A stretch of 64,000 bases of DNA from an uncultured Alphaproteobacteria bacterium (GTDB lineage Bacteria > Pseudomonadota > Alphaproteobacteria > Rs-D84): the NCBI GenBank assembly GCA_905233975.1, contig CAJOGD010000002.1:1574-65573 (forward strand), read 5' to 3'. A program made the position numbers and the translations under genes. The notes beneath the pieces were generated by a model, which saw only the letters and a program-made list of their open reading frames with translations, did no database searches and was not told the DNA's origin. This document shows, one piece after another, positions 15,473 through 39,877 of the stretch (positions are counted from its first letter, which is position 1; each line of letters opens with the position of its first letter).

Positions 15473-15955
15473 TTAGTGTTGTCTACAATTATTCGCTGTT
15501 GCGCGTTGCTTCATAGCGGCCAGGTTGGCGATTATAAGTTGTTCTATATAATCGCACAAGTCGTCGTTTAGACCTTGGTTTTGGTATTTTTGATATAATT
15601 CCATTAATTGGGTATGGCGTTGAGCCATGTCATATGCTACTGTGTCGCCCTGGCGAATTGGTGGCAGGCGATACGTATAATAATAGGGATCAAAGACCAA
15701 GTGGTTTTTATTTCCTAAATCGCAAACTAATTTTTTCTTGCCGTCCTCGTATATTGTGTCTATGCCGTACACCTGTAAAGTATCGCGATGATTAACAACG
15801 ACTTGTGTTTTGTGACGGATAAATTTACAGTGTTGTTGTGTTTCGGAATATGTGTCAACTGGTGTTGCGTCTTGAGCCTTTGCGTTACGTGACACAAGAC
15901 CAAGTGCAAGCAATGCGCCAAGTTTAAGAGTGTTTTTTAGATTGTTGTGTTTCAT
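15473..15955 (-). CDS. small secreted protein, tandem paralog 2
   Basis: Start moved to ATG 15955 (MKHNNLKNTLKLGALLALGLVSRNAKA), preceded by an AAAGGAG RBS. Confidence 0.65.
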   Translation of the reverse strand: MKHNNLKNTLKLGALLALGLVSRNAKAQDATPVDTYSETQQHCKFIRHKTQVVVNHRDTLQVYGIDTIYEDGKKKLVCDLGNKNHLVFDPYYYTYRLPPIRQGDTVAYDMAQRHTQLMELYQKYQNQGLNDDLCDYIEQLIIANLAAMKQRATANNCRQH

Positions 15956-33085: not shown

Positions 33086-34879
33086 TTAAAACAATTTGAA
33101 CTTGTAATTCGTTCCTGCGCGGAGTGTCATCTGGGTTTTGTCGCCCGTTGCCAAACCTGCGCCGACGTTTACAGACCAACGATTGGTTAAACCCATCGCC
33201 GCGCCCAGTGCAACGGCGGATTGGTTGTTGTAATAACCATAGCCGCCACCAAAGGATACTTCGCCTTTGCCTACATTGGATACCGCCACAGCAGATAATG
33301 CGGTTGCCGCTGCAACGCCACCCGAAACGTTCTTTTCAAGTGAATCTACTTTTTGGTCGGTATATGCGTTCGCACGTGCCAATGTCGCCGCATCAGCCGC
33401 CGCAAAGTCGTTGCGAATGGCCGCTTCTTGGGCGGTTGCGCGTGCAACTTCGTTGTCGATTGCGTTTTGCAATGTGGCATCGGCCGCCGCAAATTCAGAA
33501 CGAATAGCGGCTTCTTCGCCCGTTGCGCGTGTCACTTCTGCATCGATGTTGCTTTGCAATGTGGCATCAGCCGCCGCAAATTCAGAACGGATAGCGGCTT
33601 CTTCGCCCGTTGCGCGTGTCACTTCTGCATCAATATTGCTTTGCAATGTGGCATCGGCCGCCGCAAATTCAGAACGGATAGCGGCTTCTTCGCCCATTGC
33701 GCGCGTCACTTCTGCATCGATGTTGCTTTGCAATGTTGTGTCTGCAGCTTCGCGTGCAGTTGTTTCATTTGCAACGACCGATTCGGCGACCGACTGTGCG
33801 CGTGTATCGATTGTTGTTTCAATCGGCGAATTATAAAGATCTGATGCCGCATTGAACTTTTCTGTGTCTGCACCAAAGTTGGTCAATGCCTGTTGATAAT
33901 TGCTTTCTGCATTCGTTGCCGACGTATAGGCATTGTTTGCCGCGGTATATGTCGCAAAATTTGTGACCAGTGTCTCTTGGGCCGCTGTATCTGTGTTATA
34001 AGCACCCAAAGCCGCCGCATAATTTGCGTTTTCTGTGGCCTGTAAATCGCCCAACGCGTCGGTTGCAGCTGTTAATGCGGTGCCACTATCGGTCGCGTAT
34101 GCATCAAGCATGCCCTGGAGTGCAACCAACAAATCTGGATCAATTGCCGGGTTTGTTAAATCGACCGCCTGGCCATCGTTATCAAGGTCTTTGATACCTG
34201 TGCCATCATTAGACAGAACGTATGTATGGCCGCCTTCTGGTTGATATGAATACAGACTGATTAAATCTGTGGCAACTGTGCCACTGGTAATATCTGTTGA
34301 ACCGGCTGTATATGTCGCATTTGTGGCATAACTTGCAGACAATTCGCGTGCGGCGCCATTGCTGTCCAACGTGATGTATTGTTGGCTTTCTGGGTCGGTT
34401 GAATCATATTGTGGGTTTTCATAACTATATGCAGAATCAACGACCGATGTTCCGGCGTTCAATCCATAGCCATCGGCAACCACAACGGCGGTATAACCAG
34501 TCGTGCCGGCGACTGTGCTTGCCGTATAGTCAGAAGCCGTATATGTATTCCCGGCGTCCAATGTTTCTGATGTTCCGTTTGCCAAGGTGTATGCAAAGTC
34601 ATTCATATCGACACCATTTGTGGTGTTTGAATTGATGGCTGCGGTTGCGGTGCCATCTTGGTTTGTTCCCGTATAGGTAAAGTTATATGCCGCCGGTGTT
34701 CCGGTTGCGACATTTTCTATACCGGTGCTTGCAACATAATCACCGGCAAATGTGACATCTGTATTTGCGTTGGCAACCGAAGTTGTCAAAGCAACAACAC
34801 CCGCCAAGAACGCATGACGCAATACACTGCGGTATTGTGCAGACAATTCTTTGATAGTTGTCTTTGATTGTCTTATCAT
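33086..34879 (-). CDS. trimeric autotransporter adhesin (YadA-like C-terminal anchor)
   Basis: The C-terminus ..GGVAAATALSAVA......GE.SFGGGYGYY.NQSAVALGAA......W...VGAG........RAGTNYKF matches the YadA anchor pattern. It also has a coiled-coil stalk with 29-aa repeats, an N-terminal signal, and a strong AAGGAAG RBS. Confidence 0.8.
   Translation of the reverse strand: MIRQSKTTIKELSAQYRSVLRHAFLAGVVALTTSVANANTDVTFAGDYVASTGIENVATGTPAAYNFTYTGTNQDGTATAAINSNTTNGVDMNDFAYTLANGTSETLDAGNTYTASDYTASTVAGTTGYTAVVVADGYGLNAGTSVVDSAYSYENPQYDSTDPESQQYITLDSNGAARELSASYATNATYTAGSTDITSGTVATDLISLYSYQPEGGHTYVLSNDGTGIKDLDNDGQAVDLTNPAIDPDLLVALQGMLDAYATDSGTALTAATDALGDLQATENANYAAALGAYNTDTAAQETLVTNFATYTAANNAYTSATNAESNYQQALTNFGADTEKFNAASDLYNSPIETTIDTRAQSVAESVVANETTAREAADTTLQSNIDAEVTRAMGEEAAIRSEFAAADATLQSNIDAEVTRATGEEAAIRSEFAAADATLQSNIDAEVTRATGEEAAIRSEFAAADATLQNAIDNEVARATAQEAAIRNDFAAADAATLARANAYTDQKVDSLEKNVSGGVAAATALSAVAVSNVGKGEVSFGGGYGYYNNQSAVALGAAMGLTNRWSVNVGAGLATGDKTQMTLRAGTNYKFKLF
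33396..33743 (-). repeat. 87-nt (29-aa) in-frame tandem repeat, 3 near-identical copies plus 1 diverged
   Basis: Copies begin at 33483, 33570 and 33657, and each encodes DATLQSNIDAEVTRATGEEAAIRSEFAAA. A diverged copy lies at 33396..33482. Confidence 0.85.
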
Positions 34880-34947
34880 GATTTTCTTCCTTTTTTTTGT
34901 TTAACGTTAAATCCTTAAAAGGCCTCTCCTTTTAAGACACAAACGCA

Positions 34948-34974
34948 TGATATAAAAACCAAGGTTTTTTAACC
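34948..34974. promoter_or_regulatory. hix-like recombination site 1 (putative invertase crossover site)
   Basis: TGATATAAAAACCAAGGTTTTTTAACC. As I recall it, the 15-nt core AAAACCAAGGTTTTT (34955..34969) is identical to the core of Salmonella hixL. Confidence 0.55.
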
Positions 34975-35062
34975 CCCTGTGTATAAAAACTGTCAAAAAT
35001 AGGCTTGTTCATTGTTTTTAGAAGAAAAAATGATTTTTATTTTTTTGAAAAAAATGGTTGAT

Positions 35063-35086
35063 TTTATTCCTTGGTTTAATTTATAC
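35063..35086. promoter_or_regulatory. hix-like recombination site 2 (inverted relative to site 1)
   Basis: TTTTATTCCTTGGTTTAATTTATA. CCTTGGTTT (35069..35077) is the exact reverse complement of AAACCAAGG (34956..34964). Confidence 0.5.
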
Positions 35087-35189
35087 CACTTGAAACAATC
35101 GGATATATGATTATATCTTGGCTTGACCACAGGTGCTGATCTTTTTCGGCGCCCTGTTTTTTAATACAATATAAACAAAGGAAGCAACT

Positions 35190-35789
35190 ATGATTTATGG
35201 TTATTGTCGCGTTTCAACCGCGCATCAACACGAAGAAAACCAACACTTTGTCATAGAAAATTTTGCAAAGAGCAATGGATTAATTATCGATTCTTGGGTG
35301 GAAGAAAAAATTTCAAGCGGAAAAAGATTACAAGACAGAAAATTGGGCACATTGTTAAAACGACTTCAATCGGGCGACATTTTAATCACAACGGAAATAT
35401 CAAGACTGGGGCGCAGTTTGTTGGAAGTTATGGGAATTTTGCAGACGTGTCTTGAACGCGGTTGTCAAATATGGACATTGAAAGAAAATTTCCGGTTGGG
35501 AACGGATATACAATCCAAAGTTTTGGCCTTTGCATTTGGTTTGTCGGCTGAATTGTCGCGTTCGTTGTTGCAAGAGCGTGTGCGGGAAAGCCTTGCGCGG
35601 TTAAAGGCGGCGGGTAAAAAACTTGGACGACCCGTTGGCGCACACTCAAAAATATTAAAACTTAGCAAGAATAAAAAACGAATAAATACTTTAATCGACA
35701 AAGGGGTCAGCAAAAATGAAATTGCACGAATCATGCGTGTTAATAAAAGCACGCTTTATAATTATCTGCGGCATATGGACGCGATTTAA
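35190..35789 (+). CDS. small serine recombinase (resolvase/invertase family, Hin/Gin-like size)
   Basis: MIYGYCRVSTAHQ (catalytic Ser), GDILITTEISRLGRS and the C-terminal HTH VSKNEIARIMRVNKSTLYNYL. 199 aa, AAAGGAAG RBS, AT-rich. Confidence 0.85.
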   Translation: MIYGYCRVSTAHQHEENQHFVIENFAKSNGLIIDSWVEEKISSGKRLQDRKLGTLLKRLQSGDILITTEISRLGRSLLEVMGILQTCLERGCQIWTLKENFRLGTDIQSKVLAFAFGLSAELSRSLLQERVRESLARLKAAGKKLGRPVGAHSKILKLSKNKKRINTLIDKGVSKNEIARIMRVNKSTLYNYLRHMDAI

Positions 35790-36201: not shown

Positions 36202-38109
36202 TTATCGGGCGGTGGACCATGGTTCGTCATTCATGAACAACCAATACAGCGATTGACTTTCGCGGCCGGGGTTGCGAATGATTGGGCGGACGACGTATAT
36301 ATCGACATCGCATGCGTATCTGTTGTCGGCCTCTTGGGTTTCGACCAGGTCTTGGTAAAACTTTTGCGCGAAATCCATCGCTTGCAAATACGCGGCGTCA
36401 TCGTCCGCGGCGTCGGCCGAATCGCCTGCCCACATCAGCCACATGCCATAGTTCACGACGTTATCTTGGCCTTCGATATCATCGGCGGACAGCAATAAAA
36501 GTGGTTTCATGGTGAGTCCGTTTGTAAATTCGTCCGTCGATGTGTTGGTCCAATCATAGAAATCGCCAAGCAGCCCCAGCACAAAGTGCAACGCGGCAAT
36601 ATCTTCGCCGACGCGTGCGATTCGGCCGGCGTTGCGCATGCTGGAATGAAACAGCCAATCGCGCAACCAACCAGATTTTTCCCCTTGTCGTGCAACTTTT
36701 GCGGCCTTGTTCAAAGTTTTTGTGCCATTGTGTGCGGCCTTGTAAGTTTTGCCAACGTTTTTAAGCCCTTGCCATGCGCGGCTTACCATATTTCCTGTGC
36801 GCGCCTTTTTGTATGCTTTAAGTTCCCGCGCATATTTTATTACGTTTTCAAGTTCTTTGGATTGTTTCGCGTATTCGGCGACATCTTTATCCGCCCGCGC
36901 CATTTTGGACATTTCTTTTTCGGTTTCGGAAATGGCCTTGGTGTTTTCTTCTATCATTTTTGTGAATTTTTCAAGGTCTTCGACTTTATCTACGCCCTCG
37001 CCTGCCTTGCCCAGTTTCCACATATTGTCGGCCTTTAGTTTCCGCGCCGCATCAAGCTGTTTTGCAATTTTTTCATATTTTTTTGAACCTTTGGTTGCCT
37101 TGGCCAGTGCCTTTTCAAGTTTATCAATGGTCTTGATTGTTTTCGTCATGTCGTTCATGTTGTCGATTTGTTTGGTTAGCCGCGCAACTTTTACCGATTC
37201 GCGAACATATTTTTGAACGTTTTCTATTCGCGTTAGCGTCTTCATGTTTTTGCCGATTTTGCCAATTATTCGCGTTGCGCGTGCAGCCTTGGCGCCCGCA
37301 CTTACCGCCGCAAAGCCGCCGAAACTTACCACCGTAAGGGCGATGTCCAATGCGATTTCTGCAAACGATATCCAATGCAGATTTATGTCGCCGGCGATAT
37401 AGTAATTGTTTTTGTCGTTATCATGTTTTGCGGTGTGTTCGTGCAGAACCCGGTGTATCATGGCCCCCCGCATTTTCGCGGTCACACCGGAACGCGTTGA
37501 ACACATGCCGTCCATATCGCGCGGGTAAAGATCCGATATGTTATCGTCAATATATTTCATGGATACTGTATTATTTTTGCCCGGGCCGACCATGTCGCGC
37601 AGTGCGCCCGATTGCACAACCATAATTCCGTACCATGCGGGATCGGTATTCACCCATGTTGCGGTTGCGTCATCGGGCGAAACCGCGGGATTCGGGTCGT
37701 CGGTCGGCAATTCAGTCTTGGTGGCAAGTATAAAGTGTTGTTCCAAAACTTTGGGTTGCGTTTCATAATTCACAACAATTTCGCGGCCGTTTGGAAAGGT
37801 ATATTGTATCGGCAAAAAACGAATGGTTTCGTTTTCGTCGGCATTAATAATTTCCGGACATGACAACACCGTCCCCAATGTTTCGGCGGATTGAAAGGTA
37901 TCGTATATCCATTGTTTAACATCCGATTCGGGGGCGTCCTGAGTAATTTTGTCGGCATTATCGGTCAGTGCGTTCAAGAAAGCACCGCGAACACATGTTG
38001 TATTCATCGGGGCATTCGCGGCAAGTAAATCGCCGGTCTGCTCTATTCCGCCCGCCGCAAACGCAGAAAATGGGAAGAGAAGAAATAAAGACAGAAATAT
38101 ACTTTTCAT
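36202..38109 (-). CDS. large secreted/membrane protein with a Lys-rich coiled coil, unknown function
   Basis: Signal peptide MKSIFLSLFLLFPFSAFA, a central hydrophobic hairpin (..ISFAEIALDIALTVVSFGGFAAVSAGA..), about 200 aa of K/E-rich coiled coil and an acidic C-terminus. The start is 1 nt after the upstream stop. Confidence 0.65.
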   Translation of the reverse strand: MKSIFLSLFLLFPFSAFAAGGIEQTGDLLAANAPMNTTCVRGAFLNALTDNADKITQDAPESDVKQWIYDTFQSAETLGTVLSCPEIINADENETIRFLPIQYTFPNGREIVVNYETQPKVLEQHFILATKTELPTDDPNPAVSPDDATATWVNTDPAWYGIMVVQSGALRDMVGPGKNNTVSMKYIDDNISDLYPRDMDGMCSTRSGVTAKMRGAMIHRVLHEHTAKHDNDKNNYYIAGDINLHWISFAEIALDIALTVVSFGGFAAVSAGAKAARATRIIGKIGKNMKTLTRIENVQKYVRESVKVARLTKQIDNMNDMTKTIKTIDKLEKALAKATKGSKKYEKIAKQLDAARKLKADNMWKLGKAGEGVDKVEDLEKFTKMIEENTKAISETEKEMSKMARADKDVAEYAKQSKELENVIKYARELKAYKKARTGNMVSRAWQGLKNVGKTYKAAHNGTKTLNKAAKVARQGEKSGWLRDWLFHSSMRNAGRIARVGEDIAALHFVLGLLGDFYDWTNTSTDEFTNGLTMKPLLLLSADDIEGQDNVVNYGMWLMWAGDSADAADDDAAYLQAMDFAQKFYQDLVETQEADNRYACDVDIYVVRPIIRNPGRESQSLYWLFMNDEPWSTAR

Positions 38110-38110
38110 A

Positions 38111-39877
38111 TCATCTTATAACAAATGGTTCGGAAACAATGCGTATGGTTGTGGCGTCATCTTCGTCTGGTGCAACCTCCGCTGCTAAATAGACAACCAT
38201 ATTGTTGCTAGCGCATCCACCGTCTGCGATAATTCCTTCGGCAAATTTCTTTATTTGTTCCCGCGCCAATGCATAATTCTTTGTTTTTATTAAATGCATT
38301 CCTCCGGTTAAACCGGTAAAAGTTTGATGATAATTATATAACATTCCTGGGAAACTGACTCTGCCAAGTGCAAATCCCTCACCAGAGCCGCTTGGCTTGG
38401 GATATACTGGGCGCGCCGCAGCTTCAATGGCTGTCTTGGCACCAGAAAACGTGCTTATAACATTGTTTGTATGAAAAGGACCTGTGCATTGACGATTCCT
38501 TTCTGGTAATGAAGTGGTGGATTTTGATAATGTCGTTCCAATATTTTTTACACCATCGTTTCTTATGGCCAGTGGGTATGTCCAATAATTCGCATAGTCG
38601 AACAGTTCCATTTTATCTATACTAATATCTGTTGACGAGCCATTTGGTTCAATGTGAATCGGAATGACCTTGAATTGATCAAGGAAAGAATTGAATTCTG
38701 TCATGTCGGCAGGCGAAGCCTTTTTTAAACAATATTGGACAACGTAATCGGCAATAAAAGAATAAAAGCCGGTTTTGTTATTGTTAATCCATTTGTTTAA
38801 ATCCGTAACACCATTTAAATCGGTCGAAATCTTAGATTTAAATGCAGAATCTTGTGATATGTCCTTTAAACATTGTGGCATGTTTTGAGGATCCGGTGGC
38901 AGGGTTCCACCACCGTTACCACCGCCGTTTCCGCCTCCATTGCCACCGCCGTTTCCGCCTCCATTGCCGCCACTGTTACCACCGCCATTACCCCCACCTG
39001 TGGAACCGCCGCCATTACCACCGCCGTTACCACCGTTGGTGGTCGGGGCTTCTTCTTTTTTGCACTTTGGATCCGTCGGGTGTTCTTTGCAATATTTTTC
39101 CACACATTCCGCCTCATTCGGGCGACGGTTGCAGTATTCGTCGAAATTTTGTGCTTTTAGGCGTTCAAAGAAATTTGCGTCTTCGCCAAGGAAATTCGGT
39201 TTTTTGTATGATTTCAAATCTTTATATGGCTCATACCCTGCGGTGGTGTTAGCAAGCCGGTCTGTGAATGATAAATCCGCGGTTGTTTTTGGAAAATCCG
39301 CCGCACGCAGTGCTGGCGTGGCCGTCGTCATCGATTGTAATCTTTCCAATTCCGCCGCGCGGTCGGCAACGGCGCGCTGGTCCGCGGTGGGTTGTTGTTT
39401 AAACGGATTGGCAATTTCGATGTTTGTTGTTTGCTTTGTGGTTTTAACAGTATTGACCGCGGACGTATTGCCGTATTGTTTTTGAAATTTTTCAAACGTG
39501 GAATCGATATATCCACCACAAGATGTTGCAAAATTATGTCCGGGTAATTGCGATAGTTGCACCATAATTGTTGGGCGAACATCAGAAATGCGCAATCCCG
39601 CACAATAATTATGTTCGGCGCAATATGATGTGACCAGGTTTTCAACAACACGATTGCAATCGCCGGTATTCAAATCCGCACCGTTTGCATAAATTGGCTT
39701 TGGAAAGTTTTGATTATAAGGACTGTTTTTATTCCAAAATGGATTGGACGAGTAATTTTTTACCGACTGAATTTCCCCGTATTGCGAAAGAATTGCCGGT
39801 GCCGTTCCAACCGCATGTGCCGCCCCGGCGCACAACGCCGCGACCGATAATGTCAACAAACAATTGGTTTTTTTCAT
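38111..39877 (-). CDS. large secreted protein with a (GGGN)n tract, unknown function
   Basis: Signal peptide MKKTNCLLTLSVAALCAGAAHA, Cys pairs, and NGGNGGGNGGGSTGGGNGGGNSGGNGGGNGGGNGGGNGGGNGGG encoded at 38907..39042. Confidence 0.65.
   Translation of the reverse strand: MKKTNCLLTLSVAALCAGAAHAVGTAPAILSQYGEIQSVKNYSSNPFWNKNSPYNQNFPKPIYANGADLNTGDCNRVVENLVTSYCAEHNYCAGLRISDVRPTIMVQLSQLPGHNFATSCGGYIDSTFEKFQKQYGNTSAVNTVKTTKQTTNIEIANPFKQQPTADQRAVADRAAELERLQSMTTATPALRAADFPKTTADLSFTDRLANTTAGYEPYKDLKSYKKPNFLGEDANFFERLKAQNFDEYCNRRPNEAECVEKYCKEHPTDPKCKKEEAPTTNGGNGGGNGGGSTGGGNGGGNSGGNGGGNGGGNGGGNGGGNGGGTLPPDPQNMPQCLKDISQDSAFKSKISTDLNGVTDLNKWINNNKTGFYSFIADYVVQYCLKKASPADMTEFNSFLDQFKVIPIHIEPNGSSTDISIDKMELFDYANYWTYPLAIRNDGVKNIGTTLSKSTTSLPERNRQCTGPFHTNNVISTFSGAKTAIEAAARPVYPKPSGSGEGFALGRVSFPGMLYNYHQTFTGLTGGMHLIKTKNYALAREQIKKFAEGIIADGGCASNNMVVYLAAEVAPDEDDATTIRIVSEPFVIR

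Follow-up and report, generated by a model that had tools for sequence, protein, structure and literature searches.

Promoters that are inverted by serine recombinases (Hin, Mpi) or tyrosine recombinases (FimB/E) are well known. In Escherichia coli, the type 1 fimbrial adhesin is turned ON or OFF by inversion of fimS, a promoter-bearing element beside the recombinase genes; the element is 314 bp long, has 9-bp inverted repeats, contains a complete promoter, and is inverted by tyrosine recombinases. In Bacteroides fragilis, the small serine recombinase Mpi flips short intergenic promoter segments that turn surface structures ON or OFF. Each of these polysaccharide promoters is contained entirely within its segment, and the inverted repeats have the consensus ARACGTWCGT. 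Hin, with its hix sites, and the Din family (Gin, Cin, Pin) are serine recombinases with a C-terminal HTH that act on imperfect palindromes around a 2-bp centre, in ON/OFF or alternate-expression switching of surface structures. Haemophilus influenzae hif takes another route, in which slipped-strand mispairing of dinucleotide repeats changes the spacer between the -35 and -10 elements. The targets of Mpi are 13 dispersed regions (PMC4747536), and short invertons have been compiled in large catalogues (PMC11602134; PMC11868660).

Here we analyze a locus in a 64-kb stretch of DNA, referred to as the window, from an uncultured Alphaproteobacteria bacterium. We consider it likely, with a probability of roughly three in four, that this locus is a site-specific inversion switch (inverton) for a trimeric-autotransporter adhesin. 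As at fimS, the switch would turn an adhesin ON or OFF by inverting a short promoter-bearing element beside a recombinase gene, and as with Mpi and Hin, the enzyme would be a serine recombinase and the output a surface structure.

The gene pair and its recombinase

The predicted target of the switch is an adhesin ORF of the trimeric-autotransporter type (34879-33086, minus strand), which encodes a 597-aa protein that has an extended signal peptide (MIRQSKTTIKELSAQYRSVL...) and ends in a YadA-like anchor. The match of residues 538-594 to Pfam YadA_anchor PF03895 (E 1.1e-8) identifies the anchor as that of a trimeric autotransporter; the Pfam search found no head or stalk domains in the passenger region. 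The ORF is intact, and its length differs among strains of the window species (539, 568, and 597 aa). The recombinase ORF (35190-35789, plus strand) encodes 199 aa, starts MIYGYCRVSTAHQ, and is divergent from the adhesin gene across an intergenic gap of 310 bp (34880-35189). Residues 2-144 matched Pfam Resolvase PF00239 (E 1.2e-30), and residues 159-194 matched the C-terminal domain HTH_7 with 23.4 bits, marginally under the cut-off of 23.8. Ser9, in the GYCRVST motif, aligned with Ser9 of Gin, which places the protein among the small serine recombinases. A preliminary description of the locus had already reported an adhesin gene that starts at 34879 on the minus strand, divergent across 310 bp from a 199-aa serine recombinase with a GYCRVST catalytic motif and a C-terminal HTH, and the ORFs and Pfam domains agree with it on all of these points.

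The same description had called the enzyme a Hin-family invertase, an assignment that did not hold. By far the best curated family was NCBIfam NF009949 (Mpi, "master DNA invertase"), with an alignment covering 1-196 of 203 and a score of 263.1 bits, a near miss under the cut-off of 272. The best PDB matches were Gin structures (4m6f/3uj3), which aligned over the full length with 55.7 bits and an E value of 6e-14, a distant relationship. To judge from its sequence, the recombinase is an Mpi-like DNA invertase and not a close relative of Hin or Gin. Public sources give its relatives no names other than "recombinase family protein" and "DNA invertase Pin-like."

The likeness to Mpi thus includes a match to NF009949 over the full length, albeit with a score below the cut-off. 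The differences are that Mpi is found in Bacteroidota and serves a capsule locus, whereas the locus here belongs to Alphaproteobacteria and adjoins an adhesin gene, and that the promoters of Mpi are wholly inside their segments, whereas the segment here has an UP-like tract and a -35 only, with the -10 outside. ARACGTWCGT had no match in the 64-kb window, where the sites are hix-like, of the form AAACC-WW-GGTTT.

The recombinase gene appears to have a promoter of its own outside the invertible segment (35090..35119, plus strand). This fixed promoter, with TTGAAA, a spacer of 16-18 nt, and TATATC/TATCTT (also written TTGAMA, 16-18 nt, TATATC/TATCAT), was recovered when the window and two rumen genome bins, L017 and L018, were scanned for promoters. 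The sequence ACCACTTGAMA was kept in all recombinase-side flanks of a set of 26 distinct recombinase-linked switches. In the recombinase leader, the terminator scan called a terminator-like hairpin with a T-run (35132..35163, plus strand) in the window, L017, and L018. When leaders were folded one by one, a hairpin of -7 to -21 kcal/mol followed directly by 4-8 T was found in all 22 distinct orthologous leaders. The stem sequences differ, and RNAalifold aligned just 4 basal pairs because the stem lengths differ as well. The leader terminator is probably an attenuator that holds invertase levels low. Together, the fixed promoter and the leader terminator would give a low invertase level and a low switching rate.

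Crossover sites and natural inversion in relatives

Two putative crossover sites lie in the gap. Site 1 (34949..34974) reads GATATAAAAACC-AA-GGTTTTTTAACC, with its AA centre at 34961-34962, and is conserved in orthologues. Its core, AAAAACC-AA-GGTTTTTT at 34954-34970, includes AAAACCAAGGTTTTT, 15 nt that are identical to the centre of Salmonella hixL (TTCTTGAAAACC AA GGTTTTTGATAA; Table 3 of PMC3241671), with the same AA centre. Site 2 (35059..35084) reads TGATTTTATTCC-TT-GGTTTAATTTAT, with its TT centre at 35071-35072 and the core ATTCC-TT-GGTTTAA. From its centre outwards, site 2 has an inner arm that starts, beside the cleavage point, with GGAA in the window versus GGTT family-wide, and the window alone deviates among the 26 switches. 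The two sites share an exact inverted 9-mer, AAACCAAGG / CCTTGGTTT, at 34956-64 and 35069-77; the arms are 104 nt apart. The segment between the central dinucleotides (34963..35070) is 108 bp long, and in the window its -35 end points towards the recombinase gene, the predicted OFF orientation. At the segment midpoint is a conserved block, CATTGTTTTTA (35010..35020), which is the attGtTTTt block in an alignment of 26 segments; that it is a bend or a site for an architectural protein is a guess.

AAACCAAGG was found in 3 copies in 64 kb versus 0.63 expected. The third copy, at 15573, lies within an ORF without a partner and was set aside as a chance match. The 23-nt family motif, TGGTTGAYWWTWAACCWWGGTTT, had 1 match with 2 mismatches in the window versus 0.01 expected, and the family-motif scan indicated only one switch in the 64 kb.

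The sites resemble hix in the inner 16 bp, and the inner AAACC-AA-GGTTT fits the Din consensus. In contrast, the outer TTC/GAA triplets of the 26-bp consensus for Din sites, TTC---AAAC- -A -GTTT---GAA, are absent here (GAT... / ...ACC; GGT/ACC-type arms). The preliminary description had drawn the comparison with hix sites. The 15-nt hixL core that it gave agreed with Table 3 of PMC3241671, and its exact inverted 9-mer, its AA and TT centres, and its distance of about 105 bp between the sites were found again; the broader resemblance extended to the inner sequence and not to the outer triplets. All Din sites in that table have AA or GA centres, whereas half of the family here has a symmetric TA centre. 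The locus also differs from Hin and the Din family in the distance of its recombinase from Gin, in a segment of 108 bp versus about 1 kb, and in the position of the recombinase gene outside the segment. No Fis-type enhancer was evident by sequence in the segment, which showed just the central block at 35010-35020 and A/T tracts.

A recombinase scan with one genome per species yielded 80 loci, all in uncultured Alphaproteobacteria of the gut or rumen, of which several carry the label Candidatus Enterousia, and a scan of JGI metagenomes with the family DNA motif added 19 loci. In about 25 further Alphaproteobacteria of the gut or rumen, orthologous loci with recombinases 72-90% identical in protein sequence share the architecture of the window locus. 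The order is a secreted-protein gene, a leader of about 75-85 nt, an AAACC-WW-GGTTT site, the segment, the inverted second site, the recombinase promoter and leader, and the recombinase gene. The 26 distinct recombinase-linked switches have two AAACC-WW-GGTTT sites each, separated by 106-121 nt, and the orthologous segments measure 105-121 nt. The targets are mostly proteins of 490-800 aa with the same YadA-type C-terminus and hypervariable passenger regions. Contigs ending shortly upstream of genes for more distant homologues of the recombinase, inspected for breaks at the sites, have repeats of other types.

The segment is found in both orientations in nature. Among the 26 switches, 21 are oriented as in the window and 5 are flipped. 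For example, the flanks of L017 and L018 agree at 149/150 and 150/150 positions (about 135 nt identical on each side), and their segments are identical (107/109) only with one of them inverted, the breakpoints being the central dinucleotides. Two further near-identical pairs, L019/L098 and L106/L102, show the same exact inversion at the central dinucleotides, making three such pairs in total. This result demonstrates that orthologues of the window locus occur in both natural orientations with breakpoints at the sites, as is characteristic of invertons. Inversion was also seen among contigs that share one identical recombinase: 2 flipped and 8 unflipped contigs for one such protein (P0019), and 1 flipped and 9 unflipped for another (P0022), for about 15% flipped overall. 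The start of contig L091 is a perfect palindrome of flank, segment, and reverse-complemented flank. An assembly-graph walk of this kind needs both junctions, and thus both were present in one read set. Inversion was seen even in the roughly half of the family that has a symmetric TA centre.

Three switches (L091, L096, and L099) are orphans without an adjacent recombinase, a possible parallel to the dispersed regions of Mpi. Two of them share a segment with a recombinase-linked locus from the same metagenome (L099/L100 and L091/L106); the end of contig L100 coincides exactly with the distal central dinucleotide. The orphan switches hint that the recombinase may act in trans.

The putative split promoter

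The segment appears to carry only one part of a promoter. Towards the recombinase side, the A-tract AAAAAAATG (35048-35056), which we take to resemble the proximal UP-element subsite consensus AAAAAARNR, is followed by G and the putative -35 TTGATT (35058-35063). These elements (35048..35063) are on the plus strand at present and would be on the minus strand, directed at the adhesin gene, after inversion. The -35 stops 7 bp short of the crossover point, and no -10 can follow it inside the segment. In the present orientation it faces a pseudo -10, TATACC (35082..35087, plus strand), at 18 nt. A better candidate, TATCAT (34947..34952, minus strand), lies outside the segment on the adhesin side. 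The -35 position for TATCAT now reads GGGTTA, which comes from the other inner arm (CGGTTA-like in unflipped relatives). Flipping the segment in silico gives TTGATT-17-TATCAT (the reverse complement of 34947-52). The preliminary description had given these hexamers, both spacings, and a predicted OFF state, and rereading and recomputing the sequence returned the same values.

Conservation across the 26 switches is concentrated at these elements. After all segments were brought to a common orientation, the conserved parts were the two inner arms, the midpoint block ATTGTTTTTA, and, at one end, A/T tracts with AAAAAA-R-TGG-TTGAY. The promoter-end inner arm TGGTTGA reached 2.0 bits per position, as did the A-tract, and in the outer arm of the same site the positions corresponding to TGGTTGA are variable. 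In the target-side flank, TAnnnT is placed exactly 17 nt from the -35 after the flip in 24 of the 26 switches and at 16 or 18 nt in the remaining two. The target-side hexamers are TACCAT (13 switches), TATACT (9), TATCAT in the window, and TAATAT (1), with 1.5-1.7 bits at positions 1, 2, and 6 (T, A, T) and 0.6-0.9 bits at the middle positions. On the recombinase side, none of the 26 flanks has TAnnnT at 17 or 18 nt; the consensus there is ..tagACC.., TAKACC-like at 18 nt. A consensus promoter scan called TTGACT-17-TACCAT (minus strand) in flipped L018 and no adhesin-directed promoter in unflipped L017 or in the present orientation of the window. The invariance of the inner TTGA versus its variable mirror positions, together with the -10 T, A, T specific to the target side, suggests a promoter function beyond recombinase binding.

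We accept the reading that the promoter is split, with a crossover site in its spacer, so that inversion would assemble or dismantle it. This was the central proposal of the preliminary description, in which inversion joins an internal -35 to an outside -10 at the adhesin gene, and the orientations of the orthologues, the conservation among the 26 switches, and the scans of L018 and L017 lend it support. As at H. influenzae hif, the relationship between -35 and -10 would be altered without moving a whole promoter; the difference is that hif depends on repeat slippage and the locus here on site-specific recombination. One further candidate, a complete promoter inside the segment with a minus-strand TTGACA (the reverse complement of 34991-34996), was rejected: it has no suitable -10, was not called by the scan, and is not conserved.

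In the mechanism that we propose, the recombinase would bind the two hix-like sites, cut at AA (34961-62) and TT (35071-72), and invert the 108-bp segment, which would bring with it no whole promoter but only the UP-like A-tract and the -35. In the window orientation, the -35 would face TATACC; because TATACC has no T at position 6, there would be no promoter and the adhesin would be OFF. Inversion would place TTGATT 17 nt from TATCAT (34952-34947, minus strand), which would create a sigma-70-type promoter and an mRNA with a 5' UTR of about 60 nt, turning the adhesin ON. The predicted 5' UTR of the ON state (34880..34946, minus strand) contains a putative RBS, GGAAG (34886-34890), and a 5'-proximal hairpin (arms 34914-34922 and 34928-34936). 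The hairpin is a perfect 9-bp inverted repeat (-9.8 kcal/mol) that is weak evidence on its own and not significant (z -1.3). A by-eye comparison of relatives found a stem in the same place of the 5' UTR with another sequence.

State of the window copy and significance

In the window species, the OFF orientation has the junctions AAACGCATGATATAAAAACCAAGGTTTTTTAACCCCCTGTGT and AAAATGGTTGATTTTATTCCTTGGTTTAATTTATACCACTTG, and the flipped ON orientation would have AAACGCATGATATAAAAACCAAGGAATAAAATCAACCATTTT and ACACAGGGGGTTAAAAAACCTTGGTTTAATTTATACCACTTG. The preliminary description had called for both orientations to be sought. In assemblies, both were found in orthologues, and none of about 16 independent assemblies of the window species (with the identical recombinase or a 99% variant) was flipped; all are OFF. 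Assemblies report only the majority orientation, with minority orientations hidden in the consensus. At a background of 15-20% flipped, the chance of 0/16 is about 3-7%, a suggestive figure that does not settle the matter. JGI metagenome contigs, scanned for the left junction of the window species, had no match in either orientation and are therefore uninformative on this point. With none of about 16 assemblies flipped and GGAA in site 2, the window copy may be strongly OFF-biased or locked. The odds that it still flips at a useful rate seem roughly even or a little better.

It is conceivable, if on balance unlikely, that the switch is real in the family while the window copy is a relic, either locked or biased very strongly to OFF, in which the change from GGTT to GGAA in site 2 crippled recombination and the adhesin is silent or otherwise expressed. 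The uniform orientation of the window-species assemblies, compared with about 15-20% flipped in relatives, would fit such a relic, as would the fact that no other switch among the 26 deviates at arm positions 3-4. However, the recombinase ORF is intact, with 99-100% conservation among samples, and the adhesin ORF is intact with lengths that vary among strains, as expected of an expressed, selected surface protein. Furthermore, Salmonella hixR is a known recombination site despite one strongly deviating arm (sequence in PMC3241671), and consensus assemblies would conceal a minority orientation in any case.

We consider it improbable that the segment inverts but that its output is something other than a split promoter, for example, recombinase expression or DNA architecture, with TGGTTGAY and TAnnnT kept only as portions of extended binding sites for the recombinase or an accessory protein. 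The -35 and part of the -10 do overlap the recombinase-binding arms, and some of their conservation could for that reason reflect the needs of recombination and not of transcription. Each of the two sites is an extended palindrome, and ACC recurs in all four arms, at 10-12 nt from the centre in site 1 and 13-15 nt in site 2, so that binding constraints overlap the putative promoter hexamers. This reading is opposed by an inner-arm TTGA that never changes although its mirror positions in the outer arm of the same site do, by -10 hexamer positions 1, 5, and 6 that are conserved on the target side only, and by a spacing fixed at 17 nt with an A-tract where an UP element would sit. In addition, no other promoter candidate lies in the 68 nt that separate site 1 from the start codon, and the flank signature persists though the target genes differ between loci. 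Far less credible still is the explanation that the sites are chance inverted repeats in AT-rich intergenic DNA at which no recombination occurs. The gap region is AT-rich, with 30 inverted pairs of at least 8 nt in the 500 nt around the gap, so the 9-nt inverted repeat by itself is weak evidence. Yet the sites are conserved across species, natural inversions occur exactly at them, and the family motif is expected only 0.01 times per window. A site-specific inversion switch for the adhesin remains the preferred reading, with the recombinase encoded beside it as the presumed enzyme.

Several features of the locus are unusual: a -35 inside and a -10 outside the segment, a very short segment of 108 bp, an Mpi-like enzyme combined with hix-like sites, and a TA centre in about half of the family. 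A limited literature search found no published precedent for this family or for an inverton split between -35 and -10, which does not prove that none exists; the word "spacer" is absent from a review of phase variation (PMC11868660), and no paper matched in a literature text search for the site 1 15-mer. We tentatively suggest, at somewhat less than even odds, that the family represents a previously undescribed class of minimal inverton. In such a class, the crossover would fall in the promoter spacer, and a segment of about 108 bp with only an UP-like tract and a -35 would be swapped between a productive and a dead -10 by an Mpi-related invertase at hix-like sites. Apparently no room would be needed for a Fis-type enhancer, the often TA centre means that directionality would not be set by the central dinucleotide, and one enzyme may serve several dispersed switches in gut Alphaproteobacteria with reduced genomes.

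A recombination site between -35 and -10 would be an economical design, in which a 108-bp cassette gives clean ON/OFF control. For synthetic recombinase logic, such a cassette would make an attractive compact component. The family also offers natural material on how serine invertases achieve synapsis of sites just 110 bp apart and on how inversion stays directional when the TA centre is symmetric. Its hosts are apparently uncultured Alphaproteobacteria of the gut and rumen with kinship to Candidatus Enterousia, in the order Rs-D84, a lineage whose genomes are smaller than about 1 Mb and which is considered partner-dependent (PMC12306168). In such cells, a phase-variable, hypervariable trimeric adhesin would likely be central to attachment and to immune and phage evasion.

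Recombination sites and the segment between them

The two recombination sites that bound the invertible segment differ in construction (window 34949-34974 for site 1 and 35055-35088 for site 2). A conserved trinucleotide, ACC (GGT when the opposite strand is read), is found 10 to 12 nt from the centre in each arm of site 1 but 13 to 15 nt from the centre in each arm of site 2. This difference recalls the res subsites of resolvases, among which arm spacings differ. In approximately half of the switch family (L019, L022, L024, and L094-L109, all loci fetched from other genomes or metagenomes), both sites are centred on the symmetric dinucleotide TA. The published table of sites from the Din family lists no centre other than AA or GA (PMC3241671). 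Switches with TA centres also occur inverted, as in the near-identical pairs L019/L098 and L106/L102.

The exact midpoint of the invertible segment is occupied by a conserved block, ATTGTTTTTA (window 35010-35020), which is bordered on the promoter side, the end with the A-tract and the -35 element, by alternating A- and T-tracts. The block could be a bend, or a site for an architectural protein, that aids synapsis across only 110 bp.

Genes flanking the switch

The recombinase gene is preceded by a dedicated, conserved promoter and by a leader (window 35090-35163), with equivalents in L011-L109. Between this promoter and the ribosome-binding site there is a hairpin followed by a T-run, resembling an intrinsic terminator. 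The hairpin and T-run were found in all 22 distinct orthologous recombinase leaders, with stems that differ in sequence. The probable role of this element is to restrict invertase expression, as an attenuator or insulator.

On the other side of the switch, the adhesin (window 33086-34879) is 539, 568, or 597 aa long, depending on the strain, within one species (L001-L010 and L110-L119). Many metagenome contigs break within the gene, a sign that the passenger region is hypervariable at the strain level or contains repeats.

Downstream of the recombinase, two large neighbouring open reading frames lie on the minus strand at 36202-38109 (635 aa) and 38111-39877 (588 aa). The 635-aa product, which ranges from 635 to 653 aa among strains, had no Pfam match. 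For the 588-aa product, the precomputed annotation lists no family.

Related switches in other contexts and without an adjacent recombinase

Two further loci, L025 and L026, have a switch of the same type, with a segment of 124 nt, about 180 nt ahead of the recombinase gene. Rather than an adhesin gene, these switches adjoin genes for helix-turn-helix (HTH) proteins: an XRE-like protein of 90 aa in one case, and in the other a protein of 335 aa that contains several HTH domains. The two genomes have the switch in opposite states, and the AA and TT centres are exchanged between the two loci. Another recombinase homologue is more distantly related (57% identity); upstream of it, at the very start of the contig (L080:1-257), about 130 nt are enclosed by a perfect inverted repeat about 50 nt long. 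This is probably a different type of inverton associated with the same recombinase superfamily.

Switch-like elements at L099, L096, and L091 had no recombinase gene in the fetched DNA around them. The L099 element (L099:1060-1200) precedes a gene whose product, a secreted protein of 187 aa, has a weak match to the Listeria-Bacteroides repeat (25.9 bits; Pfam cut-off, 27 bits), and the gene behind the L096 element encodes a 267-aa secreted protein. The start of the L091 contig (L091:1-330) is a perfect palindrome, in which a flank and the segment are followed by that flank in reverse complement. Such a palindrome is a walk through the assembly graph, which requires reads with the segment in both orientations. 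For two of the recombinase-less elements, the same metagenome also contains a switch that is linked to a recombinase and has almost exactly the same segment (L099 with L100:2020-2149, and L091 with L106). The occurrence of such elements suggests that one invertase may serve several dispersed switches.
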